This document shows positions 18,658 to 38,375 of a stretch of 62,147 nt of DNA, piece after piece. This DNA comes from a virus (lineage: Duplodnaviria > Caudoviricetes): the IMG/VR virus record IMGVR_UViG_3300042868_003080, positions 1 through 62,147 of that record; one strand, given 5' to 3'. The stretch's first letter is position 1. Every line of letters starts with the position of its first letter. A program made the position numbers and the translations under genes. The notes under the pieces are model-generated. The model searched no databases. It was not told where the DNA came from and saw only the letters and a program-made list of their open reading frames with translations.

Positions 18658-18690
18658 GTGACACACAAACAGAGAAGGGAAACTAAAATT

Positions 18691-18931: not shown

Positions 18932-19183
18932 ATGTGGAAGGGACAAGCCATAGACCTAAACCGGACAGGGCAGAACTGGTTTGAGACATTGAACGATGCG
19001 TTGGACAGCGAAGGGCTGCTGGAAATGTGGCCACTAGGTTTAAACATCAATTACGACGAAACCCGTTCACTAGCAGCTGGCGGCAGATATATTTCCATCA
19101 CACGGGACAGCACAGGGCGCTATGAGCGACCGATTCACTATGTAACACAAATGGCAGATACATATCCAAGGGAAGGGAACTGA
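18932..19183 (+). CDS. early hypothetical protein
   Basis: SD GGAG; operon packing. Confidence 0.65.
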   Translation: MWKGQAIDLNRTGQNWFETLNDALDSEGLLEMWPLGLNINYDETRSLAAGGRYISITRDSTGRYERPIHYVTQMADTYPREGN

Positions 19184-19184
19184 G

Positions 19185-19382
19185 ATGCATAAGGTAGAGC
19201 TAACAGCAATGCAGATGCACACCATCATTGCGGCGTTGGATGATGCGAGAGGGGACTATTTCGAAAAGGCATACCATGCCGACCGCAAGGGGCATGAGAG
19301 CCGAGCAACAGACTATTACGACATATCGCAAGAGTACGAAACAATAATCTTGGCGCTGCAAGCGCAAATGAAGGGAAACTAA
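19185..19382 (+). CDS. early hypothetical protein
   Basis: SD AAGGG; operon packing. Confidence 0.65.
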   Translation: MHKVELTAMQMHTIIAALDDARGDYFEKAYHADRKGHESRATDYYDISQEYETIILALQAQMKGN

Positions 19383-19383
19383 A

Positions 19384-20051: not shown

Positions 20052-20079
20052 TTGACAAGCGTGTCACGCTAGCTATGCT
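20052..20079 (+). promoter_or_regulatory. early promoter P3
   Basis: TTGACA-16-TATGCT; spacer holds the palindrome AGCGTG-T-CACGCT; upstream ATTGTAAAAAA. Confidence 0.7.
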
Positions 20080-20115
20080 GGGGACACCAGAGCAAGGGGC
20101 AAAGGAGCAAACGAC

Positions 20116-20328
20116 ATGATGTACCAGTTAATCACATATCCAACGATGTTGCGCCGCGAGGTGGTGGATACCTACCCATCGTACAAGGCCGCGACCGATG
20201 CAGCGCATAGCCGCTATCAGATTTACTATTTCGAACAGGACACCGACGTAGACTACACGGCAGCCGATTTCATCACTGAACAGGGCGCTATCTACTCAAT
20301 CGAGCCAATGAAGGGAGCAGAGGCATGA
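20116..20328 (+). CDS. early hypothetical protein
   Basis: AAGGAGCAAAC RBS. Confidence 0.7.
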   Translation: MMYQLITYPTMLRREVVDTYPSYKAATDAAHSRYQIYYFEQDTDVDYTAADFITEQGAIYSIEPMKGAEA

Positions 20329-20558
20329 CCGATGTAATAACATTCATCAAACCAGAGGCCGGACTAGATGTGCACCTAGAGGTGCGGGACGTAGAAACCC
20401 ATCGCTGGCGACTAGCCGCCAAGTTTGAATATAGCATCCATGCAATGGAAGCAGCGCGAGCATTGAGCGAGGCCGACACACGGGAATGGCGCGTAGTGGA
20501 CACCCGTTGGAAAGAAGGCCCGATGATAATCACATATACCAAGGGGACAGCAGCATGA
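20325..20558 (+). CDS. early hypothetical protein
   Basis: GGAG SD; ATGA overlap. Confidence 0.65.
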   Translation: MTDVITFIKPEAGLDVHLEVRDVETHRWRLAAKFEYSIHAMEAARALSEADTREWRVVDTRWKEGPMIITYTKGTAA

Positions 20559-20791
20559 TGGTGAAGGTAACACTGGAAGCGACACTAACATTCCCTGAGG
20601 GGACAAAGTGGCCGTCATTCGGAGAGATTGGGAGCAGGGCGTTCACCCTGCCCAACGGGGACACAATCAAGCCTTGGGTGGCGCTGGAACTGAACGACCT
20701 GCACGACCTGACGTACACACAGGTAGAGGAACTGGGCATCGAACTGATTGAAGGCGGATGCACCATCGAAGCAGCGGGGTGGGCATCATGA
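20555..20791 (+). CDS. early hypothetical protein
   Basis: Probable start MMVKV at 20555 (ATGA overlap). Confidence 0.6.
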   Translation: MMVKVTLEATLTFPEGTKWPSFGEIGSRAFTLPNGDTIKPWVALELNDLHDLTYTQVEELGIELIEGGCTIEAAGWAS

Positions 20792-20886
20792 TGGGAACTG
20801 TCATTCACGCATTAGCAGAGATATTTTTTGTCAGCGCGGGAATCTTCGCCATCTGGGCGATACACGCAACATTGAAGGGAAGGTAA
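20788..20886 (+). CDS. small membrane peptide (32 aa)
   Basis: Manual translation MMGTVIHALAEIFFVSAGIFAIWAIHATLKGR. Confidence 0.5.
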   Translation: MMGTVIHALAEIFFVSAGIFAIWAIHATLKGR

Positions 20887-20889
20887 GCC

Positions 20890-21129
20890 ATGACCGAAGA
20901 TATCATTGAAGCAAAGACCACAGACGAACTGAGCGACCTGCTCTGTGCATACTGCAAGGCAAACGACCTAGCGTATGAATCTTGCGATGATGTACTGTTG
21001 GATGTGTTGGCGCAGATAGAGAAACGGAAGGCTAACGCAGTGTGGCTAGATGCATTCATCACACGATGGGATGTCGTACAGGCAGACGAGGATTTTGAGT
21101 ACGCAGTAGCGATGCGGGGAGAGAAATGA
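20890..21129 (+). CDS. acidic early hypothetical protein
   Basis: SD AAGG; operon packing. Confidence 0.6.
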   Translation: MTEDIIEAKTTDELSDLLCAYCKANDLAYESCDDVLLDVLAQIEKRKANAVWLDAFITRWDVVQADEDFEYAVAMRGEK

Positions 21130-21323
21130 TGTTAGATTGGGCAGAGAGCGAGAAACAGATGCTGGCCGAAGAAGCCAAGCACCTAGAGAGCATCCAGGAA
21201 ATACCGGGCTTGAACCCTGATGTGGTGGCAGCGATGGTGAGCCTGTACCGCACAGGATGGCGCGACTGCTGGATAGTAGAGATGAGGAGCCAACGGAATA
21301 AGGACACAAGCAATGTTCACTAA
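21126..21323 (+). CDS. early hypothetical protein
   Basis: GGAG SD; overlap. Confidence 0.55.
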   Translation: MMLDWAESEKQMLAEEAKHLESIQEIPGLNPDVVAAMVSLYRTGWRDCWIVEMRSQRNKDTSNVH

Positions 21324-21513
21324 GACAATGATACTGACAAGGGCCGACAAGGCATCGTGGTTGGAGACGATATGGGATGCGCTGCATGGGTACAGAGAGA
21401 TGTGCCTACCTGAGAGCGAAGAGTACGACCACATCTGGGATGACATCTGCACAGCGATGGCATGGATTGAAGAAGAAATGCTCGAAGCGGAAAAAACTTC
21501 GTTGACAACATAA
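21313..21513 (+). CDS. acidic early hypothetical protein
   Basis: AAGGA SD; WDDICTAMAWI motif. Confidence 0.6.
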   Translation: MFTKTMILTRADKASWLETIWDALHGYREMCLPESEEYDHIWDDICTAMAWIEEEMLEAEKTSLTT

Positions 21514-21540
21514 ACAAACCCGTGTCACACATCGTGTCAC
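21502..21540 (+). promoter_or_regulatory. promoter/operator P4
   Basis: A tract, TTGACA at 21502, then two GTGTCAC boxes (21522, 21534); -10 unclear. Confidence 0.5.
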
Positions 21541-21554
21541 AAGGAGCAAACGAC

Positions 21555-21716
21555 ATGACAAAGGCAACATATTATTTCGAGGAAGACAACAAGTCGGGGA
21601 GCGGCGTGACCGCATGGGACGAATGCTATGTGGACGCAACATCAGAGACTGACGCATTGGCGCAACTTGAAAATCGCGGGGTTAACGTAACACACATCGA
21701 ACAAGTGCAAAACTAA
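21555..21716 (+). CDS. early hypothetical protein
   Basis: AAGGAGCAAAC RBS places the start at 21555. Confidence 0.65.
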   Translation: MTKATYYFEEDNKSGSGVTAWDECYVDATSETDALAQLENRGVNVTHIEQVQN

Positions 21717-21728
21717 GGGGCAAACGAC

Positions 21729-22229
21729 ATGACCACAACACTAACTAAGAAACCAGTAATCGAACTGAAGAACATCAAGCACACGGCATGGGCATCACAA
21801 GAGACCCACTGCTACCAAGCAACCCTGTACGTCGATGGCGTCAAGTGGGGGACTGTGTCCAACCAAGGACATGGGGGTGGTGATGACTTCCACAGCGAAA
21901 ACAAAAGCGATGAGGACATCAAGTGGTTGAATAACCAAATCAAGGAAACATACGACCCATACGAGTACGAGGGTTACACCCTTAAGAAAAACCTAGAGAT
22001 GGTGTGCGGTGACCTAGTCAACCAATGGCTGCGCGATAAGGACTTCAACCGCGCAATGAAGGCCAAGGTGCTGTTTACCAAGCCCGACACGCAAGGCATC
22101 TGGCAACTAGCTGTAAAGAAACCGCTGACGTTCGAGGTGATGTTAGCAAAGGCCAAGGCGCAGCACCCACACTACACATACCTTGCCGACCTGCCAGTCG
22201 ATGAGGCCAAAGCAATCTACTTCGCATAA
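21729..22229 (+). CDS. conserved phage hypothetical protein
   Basis: SQETHCYQATLYVDG...NQGHGG motif; AAGGGGCAAAC RBS. Confidence 0.7.
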   Translation: MTTTLTKKPVIELKNIKHTAWASQETHCYQATLYVDGVKWGTVSNQGHGGGDDFHSENKSDEDIKWLNNQIKETYDPYEYEGYTLKKNLEMVCGDLVNQWLRDKDFNRAMKAKVLFTKPDTQGIWQLAVKKPLTFEVMLAKAKAQHPHYTYLADLPVDEAKAIYFA

Positions 22230-22239
22230 GGAGCAAACC

Positions 22240-22509
22240 ATGCGGTACAACAGACGGCATACATTCTATTTCGACTACCTGCTTGCGCGGGAGACCGAAG
22301 ACCTAGAGGTAGAGGTGGCATACATCATCGATGACGATGAGGTGATGCTACAGTCGGTGCGGCACAATGGGGCTGAACTGGAAACCACAGAGGCAGAGGA
22401 TCGCGAACTGTATGATGAGGCGCTTGACCGAGCCTCAGACGATATGATTGCAGCAGACGCCGACTATGGCGACTACCTACGCGACTCAGCCCGTGACTAT
22501 GAAGGATGA
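22240..22509 (+). CDS. highly acidic hypothetical protein
   Basis: AAGGAGCAAAC RBS places the start at 22240; D/E-rich. Confidence 0.65.
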   Translation: MRYNRRHTFYFDYLLARETEDLEVEVAYIIDDDEVMLQSVRHNGAELETTEAEDRELYDEALDRASDDMIAADADYGDYLRDSARDYEG

Positions 22510-22512
22510 ACG

Positions 22513-22719
22513 ATGGCACAAGAGAAATATAAACGCTGGGACATAAGCCATGACCCGTCACCAACACCCATCCGTGCGTTCGACTGGATAGCTATCCATC
22601 CCGACTATGAAGCATGGACAGAGGATGGACAGTGGCAGAGCAATGGCCTGTGCGTACACGCACCCAACCGCAAAGAACTATTAGAGGCCGTCGATGAATG
22701 GGAACTAGAGAATGCCTGA
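22513..22719 (+). CDS. hypothetical protein
   Basis: AAGGA SD; operon packing. Confidence 0.6.
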   Translation: MAQEKYKRWDISHDPSPTPIRAFDWIAIHPDYEAWTEDGQWQSNGLCVHAPNRKELLEAVDEWELENA

Positions 22720-22876
22720 CGAAGAAGAGACCATCGAGAGCCTGACCGAAGCAATGCGGGGCATCATCGACTCACTAACAACACAAGCATGGTTCATATC
22801 AAACATCGTGCATAGCCTAGAAGATGCAGGGATTGAGGTGCGGGGCGTGATGAACGACCGACCACCAGTAAATTAA
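22712..22876 (+). CDS. hypothetical protein (54 aa)
   Basis: Manual translation MPDEEETIESLTEAMRG... Confidence 0.5.
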   Translation: MPDEEETIESLTEAMRGIIDSLTTQAWFISNIVHSLEDAGIEVRGVMNDRPPVN

Positions 22877-22886
22877 GGAAGAGATA

Positions 22887-23066
22887 ATGGTAACCAAACG
22901 GGAAGTAGCAGCACAGCTGCGGAAGTATGACAAGATGAGACAGGAACTACGGACACTTGAGCATGAACTAGCCAAGGCCTGTGCCGACTATGGCAGGACG
23001 CAAGGTCTATGGGGGTTCAACAAAGATCACCTACGGATGCAATTAGAAAGGGAGAAAGCAGCATGA
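22887..23066 (+). CDS. hypothetical coiled-coil protein (59 aa)
   Basis: Manual translation MVTKREVAAQLRKYD...; AAGGA SD. Confidence 0.55.
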   Translation: MVTKREVAAQLRKYDKMRQELRTLEHELAKACADYGRTQGLWGFNKDHLRMQLEREKAA

Positions 23067-23215
23067 TTATCGGAGGCAAAGACCGCACATACTACCGCTT
23101 GGCGAGTGATGAGGAACTGATCGAGGAAGCCACATACAACCCCAACACAGAGTTATGCATCGCGCTGGGCGAACGCCTAGTAGATATCACCACCAAGGAA
23201 GAAGAACCTAAATGA
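23063..23215 (+). CDS. hypothetical protein (50 aa)
   Basis: GGAG SD; ATGA overlap. Confidence 0.55.
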   Translation: MIIGGKDRTYYRLASDEELIEEATYNPNTELCIALGERLVDITTKEEEPK

Positions 23216-23379
23216 TCGAGACCACCAAGACCAGCAACGCTATGGCCCACATCACTATGCGTATCCCAGTAGAAACCCTGGAGTATTTCCAGCACTTCGA
23301 GAACCCGCGCACCGCCATGCGAGAGGTATTGGATGAATATGTAGCAGCACGGAATAAAAAAGAGGTTGACACTGTCTAA
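23212..23379 (+). CDS. ribbon-helix-helix DNA-binding protein (BrnA/CopG-like, 55 aa)
   Basis: Manual translation ...AHITMRIPVETLEYFQHFENPRTAMREVLDEYV...; missed by the ORF track. Confidence 0.55.
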   Translation: MIETTKTSNAMAHITMRIPVETLEYFQHFENPRTAMREVLDEYVAARNKKEVDTV

Positions 23380-23396
23380 GGACAGAGGGATAAGCA
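23366..23396 (+). promoter_or_regulatory. promoter/operator P5
   Basis: A tract, TTGACA, then palindrome CTGTC-TAAG-GACAG in the spacer. Confidence 0.5.
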
Positions 23397-23422
23397 CTCA
23401 CCGATAACAAGGAGCAAACAAC

Positions 23423-23623
23423 ATGAATAATACAAGAGAACTTCGCGCATTCCTCGTCGAACAGATGCAGGGTGTAGCTTCAGGTAAGGTCAACAGCGAG
23501 AAGGCTAAGTCCATCTCCAACCTGTCACAGCAAATCTATAACACCATCAACATCGAAGTGAAGATGGCGTTGTCGAAGGCAAAGCTGAACGGGCAGAGCC
23601 TAGATGCTGTCGAGTTTAACTGA
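23423..23623 (+). CDS. conserved small phage protein
   Basis: AAGGAGCAAAC RBS; ELRAFL...KAKSISNLSQQI motif. Confidence 0.65.
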   Translation: MNNTRELRAFLVEQMQGVASGKVNSEKAKSISNLSQQIYNTINIEVKMALSKAKLNGQSLDAVEFN

Positions 23624-24296
23624 TCTATCAGCACTTCCTGATGACCTCGTTCGTCAACTGCAAGGCACCATCGCGGACTATGAATACAGGAAAAACAAAC
23701 TGCATTCATGGCGTGAGGTGCTTGACCACGGGACGGACGAGGAAATCTTGGAGAAAGCGCAGAGAGAGTGCGGCGAGATAGCGCCCATCACCTTTGCACG
23801 GAACTACCCCAAGGATGGCTGTCGTACGATGGCAGACCTGACCCGTGAGATTGTCCCCCACGATATGCGAGAGCATCCACGCAGACCCGTCATCATGAAA
23901 GGCGCACTGTACCAGCGATATAGGAAATATTCGCTATCAGAAGGGCGCAGCGCACCGAACGGCTGGTTAATCCGTGTGCATAAACGGGCGGTGCGTATGA
24001 GCAAGAAGACGCTCACCGAGTGGGATGAGATAATAGACTTTTCCAGTAAGGTGGCGGTTAGACTTGCCGAACGACATTACGGGGTAACCTCCCCCTATTG
24101 GAGATATACTAGCCCCCCGTTGTACGAAGCTGGCCGAGGCAAAGAGTTAGTTTTGATGCGCGGACGTTGGGTTGGCCTACCCTATGAGCAATATAGAAAC
24201 GTGCAGATGTTCCAGAAGGTAATCCGCAAGACAGAGAAGCTGGAAGATCGACTGGAACTACTACGCGCAGCAAGGAAAGAACGAGCCGATGGCTAA
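23604..24296 (+). CDS. hypothetical protein (basic)
   Basis: 230-aa ORF overlapping both neighbours. Confidence 0.6.
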   Translation: MLSSLTDLSALPDDLVRQLQGTIADYEYRKNKLHSWREVLDHGTDEEILEKAQRECGEIAPITFARNYPKDGCRTMADLTREIVPHDMREHPRRPVIMKGALYQRYRKYSLSEGRSAPNGWLIRVHKRAVRMSKKTLTEWDEIIDFSSKVAVRLAERHYGVTSPYWRYTSPPLYEAGRGKELVLMRGRWVGLPYEQYRNVQMFQKVIRKTEKLEDRLELLRAARKERADG

Positions 24297-24606
24297 AACC
24301 CCAGAGAAAATCGTTAAGGACAAGGTTGTATCGATCCTGAAGGCTGAAGGGGTGTATTACTTCTTCCCCGCTACGCATGGCTTTGGCCGCAGCGGTGTGC
24401 CTGACATCGTGTGCTGTGTATCCGGGTATTTCCTGGCTATCGAGTGCAAGGCGGGCAAGAACAAGCTGACTGCCCTGCAAGCCAACGAGATCGAAGCGAT
24501 ACGCCGCGCTAATGGTGTGGCTGTCGTGGCTAACGAAGAGAACTGGGACATGGTGCGTCCACTGGTTCAGGAACTGTCATCAAGAGCCGCAAGGGAGGGG
24601 GCGTAA
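24289..24606 (+). CDS. VRR-NUC domain nuclease / resolvase
   Basis: PEK...GVPDI...AIECK...LTALQ PD-(D/E)xK pattern. Confidence 0.85.
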   Translation: MAKTPEKIVKDKVVSILKAEGVYYFFPATHGFGRSGVPDIVCCVSGYFLAIECKAGKNKLTALQANEIEAIRRANGVAVVANEENWDMVRPLVQELSSRAAREGA

Positions 24607-24995
24607 TGGACTCATGGATTTTAAAGAAGCTAGGTGGGCGCGATGTAAGCCTCCTGCTTGTCGAGGAGTTGGAACTGCCTATCCGCGTGTCGCATTTACT
24701 AAAACACATGAACATCCGCACTGTGGGTCAGCTTGCAGCGCTGAGTGAGGTGGAACTACTACGCAATCCAAACTTTGGGCATAAATCACTGAAGCGACTA
24801 AAAGAAGTATTGGATGAACTCGGCGTAGAACTGCGAACCACACATATACTCACTATCGAGCAACAAATGGAGCGGGCAATGGCCCGTGCCCGTGCCGCTA
24901 AGGTAGCGTATGCAGAAGCAGCCTTAGAGGTTCAACGCATCGCTAAGCGGCTGGCAGACACCGATTTAGAGGAAATAATCCCATGCGAGTCCTAG
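24606..24995 (+). CDS. stand-alone RNA polymerase alpha-CTD homologue with C-terminal helix
   Basis: VEELELPIRVSHLLK..NI.TVGQL...SEVELLRNPNFGHKSL..LKEVL aligns without gaps to the RpoA CTD. Confidence 0.85.
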   Translation: MDSWILKKLGGRDVSLLLVEELELPIRVSHLLKHMNIRTVGQLAALSEVELLRNPNFGHKSLKRLKEVLDELGVELRTTHILTIEQQMERAMARARAAKVAYAEAALEVQRIAKRLADTDLEEIIPCES

Positions 24996-25591
24996 TAGCC
25001 TGTGAATATAGCGCCACTGTGCGCGATGCGTTCCGTGCCAAGGGGCATGATGCATGGTCTTGCGATCTGTTACCGACCGATGGTGACCCGCAATGGCATC
25101 ATGAAGGTGACATCACCGACATCCTCTACGGCGACTGGGATATGTTAATCGCGCACCCGCCCTGCACATACATGACGAACAGCGGTGTAACGTGGCTGCA
25201 TCGCGACCCTAGTCGCTGGGCCAAGCTGGATGACGCTGCACACTTCTTCAAGGAACTGTGGGACGCACCGATAAAGCGCATCGCGATAGAGAACCCCATC
25301 ATGCATAAATATGCAAAGGAACGGATCGGGGGCATCCAGCAGACGCAGACTATCCAACCCTGGATGTTTGGTCACACGGAGCAGAAGGCAACGTGCCTGT
25401 GGCTGAAGAACCTGCCACCGCTAGTACCAACGAACAACGTCAAGGAAGAGATGCTGGCACTGCCAGCCAACCAGCGCCAACGGCTACACTATCTACCGCC
25501 CAGTGCGGACAGGTGGAAGCTACGCAGCACAACATACAAAGGTATTGCCGAAGCAATGGCCGATCAGTGGGGCAGCAATGACAAGATATAA
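24983..25591 (+). CDS. C5 DNA cytosine methyltransferase-like protein
   Basis: RVLVACEYS...SCDL, IAHPPC (catalytic PC), IENP, K.TCLWL motifs. Confidence 0.7.
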   Translation: MRVLVACEYSATVRDAFRAKGHDAWSCDLLPTDGDPQWHHEGDITDILYGDWDMLIAHPPCTYMTNSGVTWLHRDPSRWAKLDDAAHFFKELWDAPIKRIAIENPIMHKYAKERIGGIQQTQTIQPWMFGHTEQKATCLWLKNLPPLVPTNNVKEEMLALPANQRQRLHYLPPSADRWKLRSTTYKGIAEAMADQWGSNDKI

Positions 25592-25889
25592 AGGCATAAC
25601 CCAAGGCGACCAAGATATCATCAAGACAATCGGGTACATAACGGACGATAAATACATCGCGTCTTATCATGGTGTGGATGTGCGGCGCGTCACCGCCCTA
25701 CGCAAGCAGGTTGACGAACACAAAGCCAAGGAAACAAAAGCAACATACGCCAGCAACAAGAACGCACCCGCTGCGATAAACAGTGACTCCGAGCGCAAGT
25801 GGAATGCTGATGCCAAGGCAGGCTCCGCCCAGCTGCGTGATGCACTGTTTGCGTTCTTCGAGAAGCGCCAACGGGGAGAGAGCAAATGA
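25578..25889 (+). CDS. hypothetical protein (possible HTH)
   Basis: Start MTRYKG at 25578; DKYIASYHGVDVRRV. Confidence 0.55.
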   Translation: MTRYKGITQGDQDIIKTIGYITDDKYIASYHGVDVRRVTALRKQVDEHKAKETKATYASNKNAPAAINSDSERKWNADAKAGSAQLRDALFAFFEKRQRGESK

Positions 25890-25963
25890 CCCTGCGCCAA
25901 TTCCTACACGATAATTTCGGCTGGGATATATACGACTGGGCCGATGATGAGATTAGGTTTTAA
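25886..25963 (+). CDS. small peptide (25 aa)
   Basis: MTLRQFLHDNFGWDIYDWADDEIRF; ATGA overlap; GGAG SD. Confidence 0.45.
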   Translation: MTLRQFLHDNFGWDIYDWADDEIRF

Positions 25964-25973
25964 GGAGCAACAG

Positions 25974-26243
25974 ATGACAGACAAATACGGCAAGGTTCAC
26001 ACAGACGGGAGCCGCTCCGGTGGCCAACCATTGGACAACACAAAACCACGCTGGACGGTAACACTGACCTATTACCATGGGGATGGGCCGCGCAGCAGCA
26101 CGATTAACATCCATGAGCTTTACGAACTTCAAGACATCGTGGAGCGCGGACCTAACTTCTACGCCATTGAGAGTATCGTGATAGGGATTAACACCGACGC
26201 AGACCACCCCAAGCTAACTGTCGAAGAGGCAGCGAAGCTGTGA
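25974..26243 (+). CDS. hypothetical protein
   Basis: AAGGAGCAA RBS places the start at 25974. Confidence 0.65.
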   Translation: MTDKYGKVHTDGSRSGGQPLDNTKPRWTVTLTYYHGDGPRSSTINIHELYELQDIVERGPNFYAIESIVIGINTDADHPKLTVEEAAKL

Positions 26244-26368
26244 CCGCAGACAACTGGCTTTTCATAACAGTCATGGGGGTAATAATCCTCGCCGCATATC
26301 TGAGCGCCACTAAGCCGAAGATAACCGAGCAAGAGCGCGAAGAGATGGAAGAGGAGTGGTGGGGATGA
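26240..26368 (+). CDS. small membrane protein (42 aa)
   Basis: GTG start; WLFITVMGVIILAAYL helix. Confidence 0.5.
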   Translation: MTADNWLFITVMGVIILAAYLSATKPKITEQEREEMEEEWWG

Positions 26369-26565
26369 CATTTGGTAAGGACATAAGGAAGTCTAAGTAC
26401 GGCATTAACGCGATGGAACTAAACGAGGTTCGCATATTCGATACGCCAACGGAACGAGACAAAGACCTGGTACGCCGCGCTGCACATAACCAAAACGAGC
26501 GGTCAGACCGCTATTACATGACCCGCGCCATTGGCGACACCGTACATGTAACAAGGATACGTTGA
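26365..26565 (+). CDS. small basic protein
   Basis: KSKYGINAME...VHVTRI; ATGA overlap. Confidence 0.55.
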   Translation: MTFGKDIRKSKYGINAMELNEVRIFDTPTERDKDLVRRAAHNQNERSDRYYMTRAIGDTVHVTRIR

Positions 26566-26789
26566 TGCCGATTCGTAAGTTTGACCGTATCTTTGGGGGC
26601 GATGGTCTCTACACTGGCAAGCACGAAACCGTTGTCGAATGCGACGAGTGCGGCAAGCACATATGTTTTGAAACCGAGCACAGTTTTGGCGGCACCTACC
26701 AACCACCTGAGGTCGAGCAAAATGGCTTCACTAAAATCTTAAAGCCGGATGGGTATGATTTCATCTGTAAGGACCATGTAAAGAAATGA
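26562..26789 (+). CDS. zinc-finger protein
   Basis: CDECG...ICKDH. Confidence 0.55.
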   Translation: MMPIRKFDRIFGGDGLYTGKHETVVECDECGKHICFETEHSFGGTYQPPEVEQNGFTKILKPDGYDFICKDHVKK

Positions 26790-28603
26790 ACATCATCACA
26801 ATCGACTTCGAGACCTACTACAGCCAGCAATTCAGTCTGTCGAAGATCACCACCGAAGAGTATGTCCGTCACGATCTGTTCGAGACCATCGGCGTTGCCG
26901 TGAAGGTGGACGATGGTGAGACCCAGTGGTTCTCAGGCCCGAAGGCCGCGACTAAGAAGTTCCTGGATCAGTTCCCTTGGGATGATGCTGTGGCTGTCGC
27001 GCACAATGCTGTCTTCGACATGGCAATCCTGAACTGGCAGTTCGACATCCGACCCAAGCGCATAGTGGATACGCTATCTATAGCACGGGCCAAGCATGGC
27101 ACAGATGGTATCAGCCTTAGCCTCAAGTCGCTGGCCGAGCACTTCGGCTTAGGTGCCAAGGGTACAGAGGTTATCAATGCGCTGGGCAAGAACCGGCTGG
27201 ACTTCACAGCGGAAGAACTGGCGCGCTACGGCGACTACTGCATCAATGACGTCGAACTTACCTACGAACTATTCAAGATACTGGCTGATGGCTTCCCTAC
27301 GACAGAGTTACGGTTAATCGACCTGACACTGCGGATGTTCACGGAACCAAAGCTGACGTTGGATAAGACGGCTCTGACCGACCACTTGGCTGACGTTCAA
27401 GCTAAGAAGGAAGCCCTGATGTCGAAGCTGAACTACGACAAGGCCGATCTGATGTCGAACCCGAAGCTGGCCGATCTCCTGGAGTTTCATGGTGTCGTGG
27501 TGCCGATGAAGGTTAGCCCTGCCAATGGTAAGCAGACCTACGCTTTCGCTAAGTCGGACGAGGCGTTCAAGGAACTGCTCGAGCATGAGAACATACAGGT
27601 ACAAGCCATCGTCGCTGCGCGGCTGGGCGTGAAGTCCACATTGGAAGAGACACGCACCGAACGGTTCATCAACATCGCAGACCGAGGCACACTACCTATC
27701 CCACTGCGCTACTACGCTGCCCACACTGGACGCTGGGGCGGTGATGACAAGGTGAACATGCAGAACCTACCGCGCAAGTCACCGCTGAAGAAGGCGATAC
27801 GCGCACCAGACGGGTACTTGCTGGTCGATTGCGATTCATCACAGATTGAAGCGCGAACCTTGGCGTGGCTGGCTGGACAGGATGACTTGGTCGAAGCCTT
27901 CGACAAGGGCGAGGACGTGTACAAGATCATGGCGTCCGCCATCTACAACAAACCAATCGAGGATATCACGGACCCCGAACGCTTCGTAGGCAAGACCACC
28001 ATCCTTGGTGCAGGCTATGGCATGGGCGCTGCCAAGTTCAAGGCCCAGCTGAAGACCTTCAATGTCGATATGGAACTGGGCGAGTGCGAGTACATCATTA
28101 GGGTATACCGTGAGACCTACCCGATGATCCCGCGCCTGTGGAAGCAAGCCGGACGTGCGCTTGATGCGTTGATAGCTGGGCAGACTGCACCCTTCGGGCG
28201 TGATGGTGCGCTGGTGGTGGACGCAGACGGCATCAAGTTACCCAACGGCTTGTACATCAAGTACCCACGGCTAAGGACACAGACACAGGGCGATAGGCAG
28301 GAGATGGTCTATGATACCAAGAAGGGCCGAGCCACTATCCCTACCCGCATCTATGGCGGGAAGGCTGTCGAGAATGTGTGTCAGGCGCTGGCTCGCATCG
28401 TGATCGGTGAACAGATGCTGATGGTCGCACGGAAGCTACCTGTCGTGATGACCGTGCATGACGCTGTCGGTGCGCTGGTTAAGATCGATGAAGCTGATGA
28501 AGGCCGGACCTTCGTCGAGCAATGCATGCGGATCAGGCCCAAGTGGGCACAAGGGTTACCGTTGAACTGTGAGAGCAAGATAGGAGCAAGCTACGGTGGA
28601 TGA
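26786..28603 (+). CDS. polA: DNA polymerase family A with 3'-5' exonuclease
   Basis: Exo DFET, HNAVFD, YCINDV; TGRW...NMQN; motif A DSSQIEAR; motif B RFVGKTTILGAGYG; motif C VHD. Confidence 0.92.
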   Translation: MNIITIDFETYYSQQFSLSKITTEEYVRHDLFETIGVAVKVDDGETQWFSGPKAATKKFLDQFPWDDAVAVAHNAVFDMAILNWQFDIRPKRIVDTLSIARAKHGTDGISLSLKSLAEHFGLGAKGTEVINALGKNRLDFTAEELARYGDYCINDVELTYELFKILADGFPTTELRLIDLTLRMFTEPKLTLDKTALTDHLADVQAKKEALMSKLNYDKADLMSNPKLADLLEFHGVVVPMKVSPANGKQTYAFAKSDEAFKELLEHENIQVQAIVAARLGVKSTLEETRTERFINIADRGTLPIPLRYYAAHTGRWGGDDKVNMQNLPRKSPLKKAIRAPDGYLLVDCDSSQIEARTLAWLAGQDDLVEAFDKGEDVYKIMASAIYNKPIEDITDPERFVGKTTILGAGYGMGAAKFKAQLKTFNVDMELGECEYIIRVYRETYPMIPRLWKQAGRALDALIAGQTAPFGRDGALVVDADGIKLPNGLYIKYPRLRTQTQGDRQEMVYDTKKGRATIPTRIYGGKAVENVCQALARIVIGEQMLMVARKLPVVMTVHDAVGALVKIDEADEGRTFVEQCMRIRPKWAQGLPLNCESKIGASYGG

Positions 28604-29189
28604 TGAAGAATATGAATGTCCGCTTTGGTGGCAGACCCAGGTTTCCCAAAAAGAACTGGATGCGCGCATGGCGGCAGCGACAGAGCGAGCGGAAAAAGAG
28701 ACCCAAGCACAGCGCGAGCGTAGAGAGATCAACCAGCGGCGGTGGGAGGAGTTTAAGGATGTACCCAACGGTCGCAACTGGGCGATATGGAAGCGGTACA
28801 AAGCTGGGGGTGTGAGCCAGAAAAAAGTTGCGGAAGAGTTTGGTGTAACCCCTGAACGCATAAGACAAGCAGTAGCTAAGATCGACCGAGGGATACGCAC
28901 GGTTCTTAATCGGGGTATGGCCACAATGTGGGACACCGTGCCTGACGAATACCGCGAAGGTACGTTGGGGATTGAGTTTGTGTTTACTAACGACCTTGTT
29001 GTTAACGACCGAGAGGGTTGGAAGGGATGGGATAAAGTAGACCGCTTCGGGCGTGGGCATACGTATTTCCCGCCAACCCCCGAGTGGCGCTCACGTGACG
29101 GACTGAACGACACGCGCCCAGCTATACCTCCCCCTGTTCACACCTACTACAAAACTATTATTGAAAAGGAGCAAACAGATGAAAATTAA
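28596..29189 (+). CDS. protein with sigma70 region-4-like HTH
   Basis: SQKKVAEEFGVTPERIRQAVAK versus RpoD TLEEVGKQFDVTRERIRQIEAK. Confidence 0.65.
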   Translation: MDDEEYECPLWWQTQVSQKELDARMAAATERAEKETQAQRERREINQRRWEEFKDVPNGRNWAIWKRYKAGGVSQKKVAEEFGVTPERIRQAVAKIDRGIRTVLNRGMATMWDTVPDEYREGTLGIEFVFTNDLVVNDREGWKGWDKVDRFGRGHTYFPPTPEWRSRDGLNDTRPAIPPPVHTYYKTIIEKEQTDEN

Positions 29190-29493
29190 TGACTTTGGAA
29201 TGCCAGGTTTCGCTGAGTATCAGATCGATGAAAGCTGCCACCTATATAAGGTCGAGGTCTTCGACCGTGTGGAGGACGCTGAGAAGGGAACCCATACTAC
29301 GGTCGAAGGGGCACTTGTTACCCAAGACAGGGACTTGAGCCGCAACCCATCCGGTCGGCGCACTGGTGTGGTGCTACACTTCTGGAGCGAGGTGAACGCA
29401 GCGCCCGAAGATAAGTTCGTCATGTGCATATTCCAGCACAAGGGCGGCGAGTACATCGAGTTTAAAACCCTAACGGAGTATGAAGGAGAATAG
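29179..29493 (+). CDS. hypothetical protein
   Basis: AAGGAGCAAAC RBS places the start at 29179. Confidence 0.65.
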   Translation: MKINDFGMPGFAEYQIDESCHLYKVEVFDRVEDAEKGTHTTVEGALVTQDRDLSRNPSGRRTGVVLHFWSEVNAAPEDKFVMCIFQHKGGEYIEFKTLTEYEGE

Positions 29494-29495
29494 AT

Positions 29496-29678
29496 ATGGA
29501 AATTATATCAGTAGTAATAAGCGCGGCTACGCTGGCCTTCTTTAGTTACCAGCTTGGTAAGGGTAGTGCGGACGGGAAGGTCCTTACACTCAAGCGCGAG
29601 AACGAGCGGCTCAATGCCGAACTGCACAAGCTGACGGACCGCGACGAGCGTGGCCGATTCAAAGGGGGTAAGAAATGA
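29496..29678 (+). CDS. small membrane protein
   Basis: N-terminal TM helix, coiled coil, RDERGRF motif. Confidence 0.6.
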   Translation: MEIISVVISAATLAFFSYQLGKGSADGKVLTLKRENERLNAELHKLTDRDERGRFKGGKK

Positions 29679-30433
29679 CTGAAGAAAAACGTCCAAGCAT
29701 TATGATTGCCACCCCCATGTACGGGGGCATGTGCACGGGACACTATGTGCAAGGCTTGTTGATGACCATGGCTAAGATGCGTGACTTAGGCGTCAACGTG
29801 GCATGGTGTCAGATTATGAACGAGAGCCTTATCACCCGTGCACGTAACGACTTAGCACGAGTGTTCCTTGAGAGCGACCATGACTACCTCATGTTCATCG
29901 ACGCTGACATCGGCTTTGACGCAGAAGCTATCGCGCACCTGCTTCTGGCCGACAAGGACATCGCATGCGGTATCTACCCCAAGAAGGAAGTAAACTGGGA
30001 TAGCGTCAACCGTGCTGCCGTTGCAGGTAAGACGGACCTTGCGGACCATGCCGGAGCCTTTGTGTTCAACATGGTAGGTGGTAGCGATGTGCACACAGAC
30101 GAGACAGGCTGCATCGAAGTCCGCCACGGCGGCACAGGCTTCATGCTCATCAAGCGTAGTGTTTTTGAGCAGCTGATACCGCACGTGCCGACCTACCGCA
30201 CGTCGTCGTTCAAAGACCCAGTGACAGGCGAATATGCCAAGCCTTTGACCCACGAGTTTTTCGCCACCAGCATCGACGATACCGGTGCATTGTTGAGCGA
30301 AGATTACCATTTTTGTGAACTGTGGCGCAACCACGGCGGCAAAATACACGCCCATCCGTTCATCAAGTTGTATCATGTAGGCACGTATGTGTTTGGTGGT
30401 GACATCCTAAAGAGCGGCGGCAATCTTAAATAA
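29675..30433 (+). CDS. GT-A fold (GT2-like) glycosyltransferase
   Basis: IATPMY...ESLITRARN...YLMFIDAD...GTGFMLIKR...SEDYHFC...L.HVG. Confidence 0.75.
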   Translation: MTEEKRPSIMIATPMYGGMCTGHYVQGLLMTMAKMRDLGVNVAWCQIMNESLITRARNDLARVFLESDHDYLMFIDADIGFDAEAIAHLLLADKDIACGIYPKKEVNWDSVNRAAVAGKTDLADHAGAFVFNMVGGSDVHTDETGCIEVRHGGTGFMLIKRSVFEQLIPHVPTYRTSSFKDPVTGEYAKPLTHEFFATSIDDTGALLSEDYHFCELWRNHGGKIHAHPFIKLYHVGTYVFGGDILKSGGNLK

Positions 30434-30445
30434 GGAGCAAATGAA

Positions 30446-30937
30446 ATGAGAAAGAAAGAAAAAGCAGCAGCAATCATCAAACTGTTAAAGAAGGGTATGA
30501 CCCCCAAGGAAGTCAGGGACCGCATTGGGGTAAGCTACAACTACGCGTGGAAACTGAAGAAGGATTTGGAGAAAGCGGTGGATGAAGTGCTGAAACCCAA
30601 ACCCGAACCCGAAGTCACGGCCAAAGCCGGTGAGTATATCGTAGTCGAGGGCGCTAAGGACGCACAAGAGGTAGACGCAATCCTTGGTAAACGGGGCGAA
30701 CAGTATGGCTCGTTCATGCAGTCTTCGGACACGGTTATCCGGATCAAGGGCATCATGCACAATGCAGTGGCCCGGAACGAAGTGCACCTGTACCCCGACC
30801 AACTACAGGCGTTGGATATGATTGCTACTAAGATAAGTCGGATTGTACACGGCAACCCCAACCACACTGATAGCTGGATTGATATAGCTGGCTATGCTAC
30901 GTTAGTGGCTGACCGTCTCCAAGGGAAAATCAGATAA
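30446..30937 (+). CDS. N-terminal HTH + DUF6378-like domain
   Basis: GMTPKEVRDRIGVS; RGEQYG...KISRI...HTDSWIDIAGYA. Confidence 0.7.
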   Translation: MRKKEKAAAIIKLLKKGMTPKEVRDRIGVSYNYAWKLKKDLEKAVDEVLKPKPEPEVTAKAGEYIVVEGAKDAQEVDAILGKRGEQYGSFMQSSDTVIRIKGIMHNAVARNEVHLYPDQLQALDMIATKISRIVHGNPNHTDSWIDIAGYATLVADRLQGKIR

Positions 30938-30938
30938 C

Positions 30939-31607
30939 ATGACAGCGTGGTCCTACAGCAGCATCAAGACTTTCGATCAATGCCCAAAGAAGTATTATCA
31001 TCTGAAGGTAGCGAAAGACGTCAAGGATACTGCGGGGCCAGAGGCTGACTATGGCACTCAAGCGCACGAAGCAGCCGAACACTACATCAAACACGGGACG
31101 CCAATTCCTGGCAAGTTCAAGATCATGCGTCCCGTGGTTGAAACGCTGGCACAGTTTCCAGGAGAGAAGCACACCGAGTTGAAGCTAGGTGTCAAGAAGA
31201 CGGATACTGGCTACGAACCCTGTGGCTTCTTCGATAAGGACGTATGGTGGCGGGGCATCGTCGATCTGTTGATTACGAACGGCAAGACTGCCCACATGGT
31301 GGATTACAAGACAGGCAAGAACGCTAAGTATGCGGACATGAAGCAGCTGGACCTGATGGCTGGCGCAGTGTTCGTGCACTACCCAGAGATAACTAAGGTT
31401 AAATCGGGGCTGGCGTTTGTGGTGTCGAACGAGTTTCCGAAGAAGACGCACACCCGTGAGCATCTGGATACGTACCTGTCCGTGTTTGATAATCAACTAG
31501 GACAGTTGGAAGATGCGATGGATAGTGGTATGTGGAATGCCAAGACCAGCCCACTATGTGGGTGGTGTCCAGTTACGGGTTGTGAACATTACCGCCCTAG
31601 GAGATAG
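30939..31607 (+). CDS. PD-(D/E)xK exonuclease, Cas4/AddB-like with Fe-S cysteines
   Basis: WSYS...CP...G.VD...VDYKTGK...QL...CGWCP...C. Confidence 0.85.
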   Translation: MTAWSYSSIKTFDQCPKKYYHLKVAKDVKDTAGPEADYGTQAHEAAEHYIKHGTPIPGKFKIMRPVVETLAQFPGEKHTELKLGVKKTDTGYEPCGFFDKDVWWRGIVDLLITNGKTAHMVDYKTGKNAKYADMKQLDLMAGAVFVHYPEITKVKSGLAFVVSNEFPKKTHTREHLDTYLSVFDNQLGQLEDAMDSGMWNAKTSPLCGWCPVTGCEHYRPRR

Positions 31608-31609
31608 CC

Positions 31610-31906
31610 GTGCCGTACAAGAATAAAGCTGACCGCAAGTATACAAACGCCGCCAAATACGAAGCGCAACCCGAGCAAGTGAAGAACCGAGTTGCTCGCA
31701 ACGCTGCACGGCGCAAGCTTATGAAAGCGGGTAAGGTCAGTAAGGGAGACGGCAAGGATGTCGCTCACGTGAAAGCCTTCGACAAAGGCGGAGCGAACAA
31801 GAACGGTGTACGCGTAGAGAGTGCGTCTAAGAACCGCTCCTTCAAGCGGGACAGCAAGCGCAACCTAGTGTCGGAAACCAGTACGCGGGAACGCAAAAAG
31901 AAATAA
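31610..31906 (+). CDS. small HNH-like protein
   Basis: GDGKDVAH....KGG.N...V.S...NR pattern. Confidence 0.55.
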   Translation: MPYKNKADRKYTNAAKYEAQPEQVKNRVARNAARRKLMKAGKVSKGDGKDVAHVKAFDKGGANKNGVRVESASKNRSFKRDSKRNLVSETSTRERKKK

Positions 31907-31926
31907 CCCGCGCAAGGAGCAAACTA

Positions 31927-33486
31927 ATGCGGATCGTTGAAGACAAAGTCCTCCTCGTGGAGACACGGGACCCTGATGCTATTATATCGACAGTAAAGAA
32001 AAGCGCCTTGATGGAGACCCATCGCGGATCGTCCAAGGTTGCTGTGCATTGGGGACTGAAGGAAGCCCAGGCTTTAGCTGCCCTTGGACATGATGCGCCT
32101 TCACCGTTGCTGCGTGACTACCAGTGGACGGGTAAGTTCGCTCCGTTCGAACACCAGAAAACCACAGCGTCGTTCCTCTCACTCCGCAAGCGAGCATTCT
32201 GTTTCAGCGAGGCGGGCACAGGCAAGACAGCCAGCGTGATCTGGTCGGTAGACTACCTCATGCGGTTGGGTAAGGTTAAGCGCGTCCTTGTGCTCTGCCC
32301 ACTATCGATCATGAAGGCTGCATGGCAGCAGGACCTGTTTAAGTTCGCGATGCACCGCTCGTGCAGTGTAGCTCACGGTAGCGCCGAACAACGCAGGAAG
32401 ATTATCGCCGCTGGCTCCGAGTTCGTCGTCATCAACTTTGATGGGCTGGCTGTGGTCAAGGACGAAATCATCGCAGGCGGCTTCGATATGATCGTGGTGG
32501 ACGAGGCGACAGCCTACAAGAACCCGCAGACAACGCGGTGGAAGATACTCAAGGACATCGTCAAAGAGATAGACCCTTGGCTATGGATGCTTACTGGTAC
32601 GCCAGCCGCGCAGTCGCCCGTCGATGCTTATGGGTTGGCTAAGCTGGTGAACCCAGAGGGTTGCCCCAAGTTCTTCGGTGCGTTCCGCGACTCGGTGATG
32701 TACAAGGTGACGCAGTTTAAGTGGGCCGTGAAGCCGCAAGCCCAGTCCATCGTGCATCGCATCTTGCAGCCAGCGATCCGGTTCGAGAAGAGCCAGTGTC
32801 TCGACTTGCCGAAGGTTACCCATGTGGACCGTGACGCGCCCCTGACGCCACAGCAGAACAAGTATTACAAGATGCTCAAGAACCAGATGTGCATGGAAGC
32901 TGACGGCGAGCAGGTAAGCGCGGTCAATGCGGCGACTAACTTGAACAAGCTGCTACAGATCAGTGGAGGTGCGGTCTATTCGGATACTGGCGAGGTCGTA
33001 CAGTTCGACGTTAGCAACCGCATCAACGCCGTGTTGGAAGTGATTCGCGAAACCAACCGCAAGGTGCTGGTCTTCGTACCGTTCACGCACACCATCGAGC
33101 TATTGCGCGAAGTGCTGGAGAAAGAGAAGATCAGTTGCGAGGTCATCAACGGCAAGGTCAACCTCAACAAGCGCAGCCAGATCGTCGCTGACTTTCAGTC
33201 GCTGCCTGACCCCCGTGTGCTCATCATCCAACCACAAGCAGCAAGCCACGGCCTGACCCTGACAGAGGCAGACACAATCATCTGGTACGCACCTGTGACC
33301 AGTGTGGAGACCTACCTACAGGCAAACGCCCGTATCGATAGGCCAGGTCAGAAGCATCCTATGACCATCGTGCACATCTCCGGCAGCGAGGTAGAACATA
33401 AGCTTTACAAGATGTTACGGGGCAACATCGAGAACCACCAAAAAATAATCGATCTCTATCGTCAAGAAATTTTACAAACCGCTTGA
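31927..33486 (+). CDS. SNF2-family (SF2) helicase
   Basis: Walker A GTGKT, Walker B VVDEA, LTGTP, HGLTL, QANARIDRPGQ. Confidence 0.9.
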   Translation: MRIVEDKVLLVETRDPDAIISTVKKSALMETHRGSSKVAVHWGLKEAQALAALGHDAPSPLLRDYQWTGKFAPFEHQKTTASFLSLRKRAFCFSEAGTGKTASVIWSVDYLMRLGKVKRVLVLCPLSIMKAAWQQDLFKFAMHRSCSVAHGSAEQRRKIIAAGSEFVVINFDGLAVVKDEIIAGGFDMIVVDEATAYKNPQTTRWKILKDIVKEIDPWLWMLTGTPAAQSPVDAYGLAKLVNPEGCPKFFGAFRDSVMYKVTQFKWAVKPQAQSIVHRILQPAIRFEKSQCLDLPKVTHVDRDAPLTPQQNKYYKMLKNQMCMEADGEQVSAVNAATNLNKLLQISGGAVYSDTGEVVQFDVSNRINAVLEVIRETNRKVLVFVPFTHTIELLREVLEKEKISCEVINGKVNLNKRSQIVADFQSLPDPRVLIIQPQAASHGLTLTEADTIIWYAPVTSVETYLQANARIDRPGQKHPMTIVHISGSEVEHKLYKMLRGNIENHQKIIDLYRQEILQTA

Positions 33487-33511
33487 CAATGTATAATGTA
33501 AAAAGTATTAC
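33483..33511 (+). promoter_or_regulatory. promoter P6
   Basis: TTGACA-17-TATTAC; spacer contains AATGTAA. Confidence 0.65.
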
Positions 33512-33608
33512 CGCCATAGGTAACGTCCCTTGCGACGGCGCTGATTACAAAAGGCGGACCTGAACAGACAGGTTAAGTGGGGCGTTACCGACCAAGAAGG
33601 AGCTAACT

Positions 33609-34938: not shown

Positions 34939-35169
34939 ATGTCGTACGGCTATAGCCTGAGACTTATCGAACGGAATAACCAAGCGAATGAGAGGAAGCT
35001 GGGTGTGCAACTGGGGCGGGCGTGTATTAAACACAACGTGCCTGTCGCGGTTGTCGCCAGCAGGTTTGGGGTAACCAGACAGACGGTGTATAATTGGTTC
35101 AGCGGGACTAGTAATCCTGCTGAATCCCTTCACGGCCTAGTTACCCACTACATCTCTACGCTTTCATAG
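34939..35169 (+). CDS. Cro/XRE-like HTH protein
   Basis: VASRFGVTRQTVYNWFSG. Confidence 0.75.
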   Translation: MSYGYSLRLIERNNQANERKLGVQLGRACIKHNVPVAVVASRFGVTRQTVYNWFSGTSNPAESLHGLVTHYISTLS

Positions 35170-35198
35170 GGTTCGCCCTATGATGTTTCCTATTTTTT
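35164..35198 (+). terminator. hairpin / possible terminator
   Basis: TCATAGGG-TTCG-CCCTATGA followed by an interrupted T-rich tract. Confidence 0.55.
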
Positions 35199-35231
35199 CC
35201 AGGCGTTTTTGCGTCTGATGGCTGGTGACTG

Positions 35232-38114: not shown

Positions 38115-38289
38115 TTACGACATTAACTGGAAGGCATTCAGGCGAGGCACGTCGATATTTATCCCGTGCCTCGACCCCCCACGTGCCAAAGAAGAAGTCC
38201 GAGCCATACTGCGCAGGATGCGCATCAAGGTGGTTATGAAGCTCGTGATCGAAGAAAATATTAGGGGTTTACGTATTTGGCGGATGTGA
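38095..38289 (+). CDS. small basic conserved protein
   Basis: GAGG SD, start MKIEGV at 38095; W..F..G.SIFIPC...GLRIWR. Confidence 0.65.
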   Translation: MKIEGVSYDINWKAFRRGTSIFIPCLDPPRAKEEVRAILRRMRIKVVMKLVIEENIRGLRIWRM

Positions 38290-38302
38290 TTAATATGGTC
38301 GC

Positions 38303-38375
38303 CGGAAGTTTGCTCCTTCCTTGATGCTTGCATCATCCCCTAACCCTCGGCTGCCCACTCAGCCGAGGGTTTTTT
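38303..38375 (+). ncRNA. putative anti-RBS small RNA (~72 nt)
   Basis: Promoter-like TTTACG-17-TAATAT (38268-38296); hairpins GGAAG-TTTGCTC-CTTCC and TGATG-CTTG-CATCA plus terminator; 38308-38318 is the reverse complement of AAGGAGCAAAC. Confidence 0.6.
38342..38375 (+). terminator. rho-independent terminator ending the plus-strand arm
   Basis: AACCCTCGGCTG-CCCACT-CAGCCGAGGGTT-TTTT. Confidence 0.9.

Follow-up and report, generated by a model that had tools for sequence, protein, structure and literature searches.

The window analysed here is the whole of IMG/VR virus record IMGVR_UViG_3300042868_003080, a metagenomic virus record that is complete, has direct terminal repeats and measures 62,147 bp, with a G+C content of 52.8%. 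The virion genes are located on the minus strand, at 1–16.4 kb and 38.4–62.1 kb (structural arm), and the plus strand between about 16.5 and 38.3 kb carries small open reading frames (ORFs) and replication genes (replication arm). The labels “early/middle” and “late”, where they appear, are derived from strand and gene content (replication versus virion genes) alone. Two elements of this genome are described below. The first is an 11-nt motif, AAGGAGCAAAC, which recurs immediately upstream of gene starts in the replication arm, and the second is a hairpin within the 3′ untranslated region (UTR) at the end of that arm, which contains the exact reverse complement of the motif. The coordinates of both are given in Table 1.

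An exact search found the motif at six positions on the plus strand, the same that had been listed in an earlier note on this DNA, and the five variants named there were also as described. All of these forward copies end 1–3 nt short of a start codon, within the 0–4 nt previously reported, and the start codon is ATG in 10 of the 11 cases. A seventh exact copy is present on the minus strand (38308–38318), with no start codon after it. The total of seven exact copies compares with a mean of 0.02 expected by chance, and none of 100 dinucleotide-preserving shuffles reached seven. When one mismatch was allowed, 12 matches were obtained against a shuffle mean of 1.13; these include the variants at 21715, 30432 and 33597, plus two minus-strand matches at 17517 and 44741, both away from gene starts. 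The observation is thus real, and the number of copies far exceeds chance. Three variants, with the replacements A>G, C>T and A>G, would keep their pairing with the complement through G·U pairs, as confirmed by a check by hand.

The distribution of the motif between the two arms was assessed on gene starts that a simple heuristic had called in the window and five complete relatives. In the window, a match with at most one mismatch lies within 8 nt of the start in 8 of 46 plus-strand arm genes versus 0 of 54 minus-strand arm genes. The proposed restriction to one arm is borne out by the six complete genomes taken together, where such matches accompany 31/246 replication-arm and 1/294 structural-arm starts. 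Among starts with GGAG at the usual distance, the next two bases are CA in 58 of 104 cases in the replication arm versus 3 of 78 in the structural arm (six complete genomes; Fisher p = 5e-15, kinship ignored). Hence, the arms differ in more than the strength of the Shine–Dalgarno (SD) sequence. Structural-arm starts use GGAGA or GGAGG, in agreement with the earlier observation that late-gene SD sequences continue differently, and the comparative data also support the view that the motif is not explained by ordinary anti-SD pairing. The most constant motif bearer among the relatives is the start site of the 133-aa gene orthologues. The leftmost small plus-strand ORFs (18670–18690, 19165–19184 and 19365–19383) feature another repeated start context, GAAGGGAAACTAAA or AAGGGAACTGAG, not AAGGAGCAAAC, which may represent a second start-site class belonging to the earliest genes.

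The last plus-strand gene encodes a small protein that is conserved in all relatives, with a conserved C-terminus (..RGLRIWR..), and has no family match in profile scans. Its stop codon opens a 3′ UTR of about 90 nt ending in a strong intrinsic terminator, which has no T-run on the minus-strand side. The motif complement in this UTR consists of the last G of the 5′ stem of a hairpin, all 7 nt of the loop and the three bases with which the 3′ stem begins, and the hairpin ends 21 nt before the terminator. The 3′ UTR folds with an energy of −32.3 kcal/mol (z = −4.3) and the loop is left unpaired. No Rfam family reaches its gathering score in the window, and the matches that are weak by E-value are located on the terminator. 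A conserved [G/T]TATA box is found directly after the stop codon of the small gene (38290–38303; 114 related 3′ UTRs), 10–15 nt 5′ of the hairpin; its role could be that of a processing site, or of a promoter recognised by a different sigma factor. A TTTACG-N16/17-TAnAAT promoter, which by eye had seemed to be present, was rejected, T at position 6 being rare and A2 together with T6 occurring in 22/114 sequences. The stop codon of the oppositely oriented 2095-aa virion-type protein gene falls within the T-run of the terminator.

The hairpin is conserved among relatives. In contigs of primase relatives, its 17-mer stays unchanged both at 92–95% and at 57% primase identity, with flanks that vary. 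The exact 17-mer was found in at least 119 viral loci in IMG/VR. Among the 80 loci fetched, a shared layout was recognised in 63 by regular expression and in 2 more by eye, in spite of divergent flanks: the stop codon of the small gene, 15–20 nt, the hairpin, 15–40 variable nt, a G+C-rich hairpin and a T-run. The other 15 loci represent an unrelated, coding-like context. Prokaryote genomes totalling 596 Gb contain 48 copies of the 17-mer, which is approximately the chance rate, and the only one of these matches with the phage layout belongs to a short phage-like contig binned into a metagenome-assembled genome.

Searches that left the stem unfixed revealed eight fully paired 5-bp stems around a T(n)GCTC loop, namely GGAAG/CTTCC, GAGAG/CTCTC, GCAAG/CTTGC, GACAG/CTGTC, GGTAG/CTACC, GAGGG/CCCTC, GGGAG/CTCTC and GAGGG/CCCTT (pairs were tallied by a script, from hairpins that had been selected because they were fully paired). 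Stem pairs 2, 3 and 4 change on both sides, i.e., in a compensatory manner, and GGGAG/CTCTC and GAGGG/CCCTT hold G·U pairs that correspond to A·C mismatches on the minus strand. Another 14 classes paired poorly under automatic placement; on folding, four of them formed hairpins in a shifted register (GAACAG/CTGTTC, whose 13-nt loop holds the whole of the anti-motif, GTGGGG/CCCCAC, GGAAAG/CTTTCC and one GAGG-type stem). Because the stem changes are compensatory and G·U pairs are tolerated on the plus strand only, the reverse-copy element is most likely a folded single strand, namely plus-strand RNA.

The hairpin and the start motif occur together. Each of the five other complete relatives has one reverse copy versus several forward copies (2–11, with at most one mismatch). 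Relatives without a T(n)GCTC hairpin in the 3′ UTR are also without GGAGCAA at replication-arm starts, and have GGAGA or GGAGG at the same orthologous genes. At the start of the 133-aa gene orthologue, 23 of the 26 distinct contexts with the hairpin contain GGAGCA, versus 1 of 27 without it, where one locus counted as lacking the hairpin is cut at a contig end; the lone hairpin-less case (L169) bears a variant element containing TTTGCTCC. In a tree built from 62 primase sequences (a quick method with a midpoint root and some long branches), hairpin presence requires eight parsimony changes, at least five of them on branches with a Shimodaira–Hasegawa-like approximate likelihood ratio test (SH-aLRT) support of ≥95. 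This number of gains and losses on supported branches means that the association of hairpin and motif is not one inherited event. In the loci L184, L185, L186–L197, L016 and L241, which have no T(n)GCTC hairpin, other CU-rich, anti-SD-like loops or single strands are often seen at that place (ACCUCCUC, UCCUCCUC, single-stranded CUCCUUCUUCUCC, CCCCUCUCCUC and CCUUUCCUCC), and the replication-arm starts of relatives with these alternative elements lean to GAGGAG or GGAGAA.

The length of the U-run in the loop partly follows the length of the A-run in the motif. Counted as distinct GGAGC-type start contexts with kinship ignored, U2 loops are accompanied by CAA[CT] in 11 contexts versus CAAA[CT] in 1, and U3 loops by CAAA[CT] in 39 versus CAA[CT] in 10, with a further 11 contexts of the G·U-pairable form CAAG (Fisher p = 8e-6, phylogeny-uncorrected). 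Within the clade with GCAAG stems, members with a U3 loop (L249, L258, L259) have CAAAC at the 133-aa gene, and those with a U4 loop (L243, L244, L246, L251, L252) have CAAAAC or CAAAAT. A lineage with the loop UGGUUGCUC carries GGAGCAACC. At the helicase start, GAGGAGCAAAC is present in every phage of type B (3′ stem CUCUC), and type A phages (CUUCC) have AAGGAGCAAAC there. In the phage with the GACAG stem, ...CAAACTG occurs at two places and CAAGCTG at one. AAGGAGCA, predicted to pair with UGCUCCUU, forms the constant core, and the remainder appears to be tuned in some lineages only.

Computed energies are consistent with pairing at the tagged starts. The cost of opening the hairpin is about 3.7 kcal/mol. 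A duplex between the 11-nt anti-motif and the −24..+3 region reaches −12 kcal/mol or lower at 73/246 replication-arm versus 6/294 structural-arm starts. Cofolding with the UTR gave a change in free energy (ddG) of −12.3 to −27.5 kcal/mol for four target leaders and of −5.0 to −10.7 kcal/mol for four structural-arm leaders; the strongest value belongs to the leader of the motif at 20102. The complementarity of that leader (20080–20112, plus strand) to the UTR exceeds the 11-mer, and the leader contains a partial tandem copy (AAGGGGCAA AGGAGCAAAC); this may be due to chance. A sigma70-like site is located at 20052–20079, just 5′ of the same motif copy.

It appears rather likely that an antisense RNA embedded in the 3′ UTR pairs with the tagged start sites and probably represses them. 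The plus-strand RNA of the 3′ UTR would act in trans, either still joined to the operon transcript, whose tail it forms, or released from it by cleavage. At about ten replication-arm starts, its hairpin loop would pair with the SD and the 5 nt that follow, the ribosome-binding site would be occluded, and translation would fall as the RNA accumulates. The expected outcome is a delayed shut-off of a regulon to which the SNF2 helicase, the proteins of 133 and 163 aa and a number of small ORFans belong. Structural-arm genes would escape because GGAG is continued there with A or G, not with CAAAC. The motif and its placement, the complementarity, the conserved and covarying hairpin, the terminator, the co-occurrence and the partial covariation of loop and motif are observed, and the stable RNA species, its pairing in cells and the repression are putative. 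Repression is inferred from where the pairing would fall, and activation or guidance of cleavage are possible alternatives. The comparative data lend support to each point of the reading put forward in the earlier note, with several lineages breaking the covariation.

A number of observations weigh against this interpretation. An independent transcript would call for a promoter, but the promoter scan found no promoter-like sites in 35000–39500, and the [G/T]TATA box fits a sigma70 −10 element poorly (A2 and T6 at a spacer of 16–18 in 22 of the 114 3′ UTRs). Relatives were found in three metatranscriptome runs (shares 0.13, 0.08 and 0.07), with contigs 90–99% alike over 36.5–39 kb, including the hairpin region; as contigs of relatives, these RNA data are uninformative on RNA ends and strand and speak neither for nor against a discrete RNA. 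The duplex and start-site counts ignore kinship and rest on heuristic gene starts. The list of stems was selected for full pairing, and of the 14 classes with poor pairing, 10 resembled unrelated pattern matches. Lineages with CUGCUC loops (L312, L315, L316) and AUGCUC loops (L436, L437) retain CAAA-type starts, and several U3-loop members of one clade retain CAAC or CAAT at the 133-aa gene. The matrix of own-versus-other hairpin complementarity scores is not diagonal, which means that the stems, single cases aside, show no covariation with the targets. Finally, the cluster K mycobacteriophage Amgine keeps 14 forward copies of its start-associated sequence (SAS) without any complementary loop, so that an antisense partner is not a requirement for a start motif.

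Some of these observations are what would be expected if the motif were an mRNA operator or cleavage site recognised by a protein of the phage or the host, for instance a repressor like RegA or an endonuclease that acts at GGAG like RegB, with a hairpin that is unrelated or serves this system as a regulator or decoy. The fixed position of the motif at starts of one arm only agrees with this, as does its persistence in Amgine and in lineages whose loop mismatches the 3′ part of the motif; moreover, most replication-arm proteins have no known family, and an unrecognised RNA-binding protein is possible among them. A protein that binds single-stranded RNA, however, would not read the reverse complement. 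The conserved complementary loop, the co-occurrence over at least five gains and losses and the U-run/A-run covariation would all be left unexplained, and Pfam scans of 47 replication-arm proteins (13 + 34) revealed no RNA-binding or RegA/RegB-like domain, the families not having been searched by accession. We regard a protein site as unlikely. The earlier preference for RNA–RNA pairing with 38307–38318 over a protein site seems justified by the conserved, covarying hairpin, the co-occurrence and the partial covariation of loop and motif. Slightly less probable again is a favoured strong SD with an A/C-rich spacer, spread by descent or recombination, with the hairpin as an anti-SD-like CU-rich structure that has another role, e.g., in 3′ end stability. 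AAGGAG is indeed an ordinary SD, related lineages bear the other CU-rich loops mentioned above at the same place, and the non-diagonal matrix would be natural in this case. Nevertheless, an exact complement of 11 nt far exceeds the likeness of SD and anti-SD, the part of the motif outside the SD, CAAAC, is what separates the arms and tracks the U-run of the loop, and hairpin-less relatives use GGAGA or GGAGG at the same orthologous genes.

The reverse copy could be accounted for without any RNA by a DNA-binding protein, if the motif were a double-stranded site for a transcription or replication factor recognised in either orientation and the copy at 38308 were one more such site. Several small helix-turn-helix (HTH) proteins are encoded in the replication arm, and DNA-binding proteins were favoured by Pope et al. 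for the extended SAS repeats of cluster K (PMC3203893). All forward copies, however, have the same orientation, lie 1–3 nt from start codons and are devoid of stem arms, and the reverse copy is surrounded by compensatory changes and plus-strand-only G·U pairs that are indicative of a folded single strand, which makes a DNA site improbable. An unusual 3′ end of the host 16S rRNA pairing with GCAAAC may also be considered. The same ribosomes must, however, translate structural genes with GGAGA or GGAGG, and sister phages without the hairpin lack the motif; this explanation is very improbable. None of the four accounts for the conserved complementary loop together with the co-occurrence and partial covariation, which the antisense RNA proposed here would explain.

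Table 1. Positions of the motif copies, the 3′ UTR elements and other genes of the window mentioned in the text.
Feature	Position	Strand	Remarks
Exact motif	20102..20112	+	3 nt to ATG 20116, 70-aa ORF
Exact motif	21541..21551	+	3 nt to ATG 21555, 53-aa ORF
Variant AAGGGGCAAAC	21715..21725	+	A>G, G·U-compatible; 3 nt to ATG 21729, 166 aa
Exact motif	22228..22238	+	1 nt to ATG 22240, 89 aa
Exact motif	23409..23419	+	3 nt to ATG 23423, 66 aa
Partial motif AAGGAGCAA	25962..25970	+	Precedes ATG 25974, 89 aa
Variant AGGAGCAAGCT	28582..28592	+	A>G, G·U-compatible; precedes GTG 28596, 197 aa, weak HTH
Exact motif	29166..29176	+	2 nt to ATG 29179, 104 aa
Variant AAGGAGCAAAT	30432..30442	+	C>T, G·U-compatible; precedes ATG 30446, 163 aa, HTH_23 + DUF6378
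Exact motif	31914..31924	+	2 nt to ATG 31927, 519-aa SNF2-type helicase
Variant AAGGAGCTAAC	33597..33607	+	One true mismatch; precedes ATG 33609, 133 aa
Small gene, 64 aa	38095..38289	+	Overlaps primase gene end; last plus-strand gene
Hairpin GGAAG-UUUGCUC-CUUCC	38304..38320	+	38308–38318 is the exact reverse complement of AAGGAGCAAAC
Second small hairpin GAUGC-UUGC-AUC...	38322..38335	+	Varies among relatives
Intrinsic terminator	38342..38382	+	12-bp stem 38342–38371 (8 G-C pairs), then TTTTTTATTTTT
Family A DNA polymerase	26786–28603	+	Replication gene
SNF2-type helicase, 519 aa	31927–33486	+	Replication gene
DUF927 primase-helicase	35232–38114	+	Replication gene
Major head protein	7044–7955	−	Virion gene
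Portal	10673–13174	−	Virion gene
Large terminase	13441–14973	−	Virion gene
2095-aa virion-type protein	38374–44661	−	LPD38 domain at residues 1803–1983

Besides the genes listed in Table 1, the replication arm encodes a PD-(D/E)XK nuclease and, at 24606–24995 on the plus strand, a 129-aa protein matching the C-terminal domain (CTD) of the bacterial RNA polymerase alpha subunit (PF03118, 53 bits versus a cut-off of 23.8). Such a phage-encoded alpha-CTD-like protein may redirect host transcription. The C-terminal 870 residues of the 2095-aa protein match large PHROG families of unknown function. No tRNAs were found in the window. The phage collection contains no close DNA relative of the window, no cultured primase relative above 28% identity, and no cultured relative with the 64-aa gene. 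The terminase is 51–57% identical to those of Phage DSL-LC04, 023Pt_psg01, pelagiphages HTVC027P and HTVC023P and Planktothrix phages, whose hosts are varied. At least 634 primase relatives are present in IMG/VR. The phage family is aquatic and uncultured, and its relatives turn up in aquatic and wetland RNA libraries.

Several known systems resemble the proposed one in part. In phage T4, the proteins RegA and RegB act at the ribosome-binding sites of early genes, RegB at GGAG, and end early expression. The logic is alike, but the T4 effectors are proteins, whereas the effector proposed here is an RNA, and no homologue of RegA or RegB was detected in the Pfam scans. If the proposal is true, an RNA-based early-to-late translational switch would stand beside the protein-based ones of T4. 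Bacterial small RNAs (sRNAs) with C-rich loops of the RNAIII/RsaE type, AbcR and the 3′ UTR-derived sRNAs of the CpxQ type combine an accessible loop seed and a Rho-independent terminator with many targets in SD regions. The candidate RNA shares with them the loop seed, the 3′ terminator, predicted targets in SD regions and the place at the end of a coding operon. A structured body with a terminator is present (12-bp stem and T-run, z = −4.3, with the layout in 63, or 65 counting the 2 found by eye, of 80 loci), and so is a conserved accessible seed, an exact complement of 11 nt whose duplex energies favour replication-arm starts. Unlike the bacterial sRNAs, the candidate is encoded by a lytic-type phage, would be aimed at the phage's own genes, has no Rfam match, and its putative targets carry a dedicated 11-nt tag and not a generic SD. 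It would then be among the few phage sRNAs directed at genes of the phage itself.

The nearest mechanism is that of c4 of phages P1 and P7, which controls one operon (icd-ant) via two sites and serves immunity. c4 is a structured phage RNA that blocks translation of a phage mRNA made from the same strand or operon, its loops pairing around a ribosome-binding site of that mRNA, and the specificity is set by co-varying loop and target sequences (PMC12197685). The likeness lies in a structured phage RNA with a loop directed against a phage ribosome-binding site, which is predicted in our case. The difference is in the targets, one operon for c4 versus about ten separate gene starts with one common motif here. 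Neither the sequence nor the structure of c4 is matched: Rfam c4-a1b1 scores 9.2 bits in the window versus a gathering score of 46.7, and this match falls on the terminator. An antisense RNA acting at ribosome-binding sites is of a known kind, and a tagged regulon of many genes is unusual. No description of this hairpin, motif or mechanism was found in the literature searched, the coverage of which was partial.

As a phenomenon, the SAS of cluster K mycobacteriophages, with which the motif had been compared in the earlier note, come closest. In the original report, the SAS is described as a 13-bp consensus, GGGATAGGAGCCC, with at most two deviations, present in 11–19 copies in the non-structural half of the genome only, a few nt before start codons, mostly ATG (Pope et al. 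2011, PMC3203893). The copies are said there to share one orientation, K1 phages having a single reverse copy off the gene starts; the positions beyond the SD cannot pair with 16S rRNA, and about half of the SAS have upstream 17-bp imperfect inverted repeats, the extended SAS (ESAS) (PMC3203893). The function was still stated as unverified in a 2025 source (PMC12699233). Common to both cases are an asymmetric motif containing AGGAG, positions beyond the SD that cannot pair with 16S rRNA, the non-structural half, the proximity to starts and a single orientation apart from one reverse copy. The window has six exact copies and five variants, all in the replication arm and 1–3 nt from the start, and one reverse copy; a single reverse copy is likewise present in 5/5 relatives. 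The analogy therefore stands as far as placement and the single reverse copy are concerned, but it does not extend to membership: AGGAG alone is common to GGGATAGGAGCCC and AAGGAGCAAAC, the window's motif does not conform to the SAS consensus, and the hosts and the phage type differ. The 25 nt upstream of the 11 sites in the window share no sequence as judged by eye, in contrast to ESAS, no dedicated repeat search having been made.

Mycobacterium phage Anaya (JF704106, L441) has 16 forward SAS and one reverse. The reverse SAS of Anaya constitutes the 10-nt loop CCTCCTATCC of a perfect 6-bp plus-strand hairpin, GCGCGG/CCGCGC, in the gp96–gp97 gap (39861–39892 of the locus). Niklas and Validus have retained this hairpin, as has Amelie, where one of the pairs is G·U. 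In Amgine, Ekdilam and SirPhilip, the loop of the homologous hairpin differs. The parallel with cluster K is suggestive, not established, and the generalisation is partly borne out. It is conceivable, though we consider it doubtful, that in the phages studied here a private extension of the SD tags a regulon and one hairpin RNA, a “private anti-SD”, titrates its starts as a timing switch, and that the same logic explains the SAS of at least the K1 phages as a recurrent, convergent way of programming phage translation. Many forward copies at gene starts and one reverse copy in a hairpin loop could serve as the annotation signature of such regulons. Start motifs of the SAS type have been known since 2011 without a mechanism, and the window offers a concrete and testable one, an antisense hairpin in the same genome.

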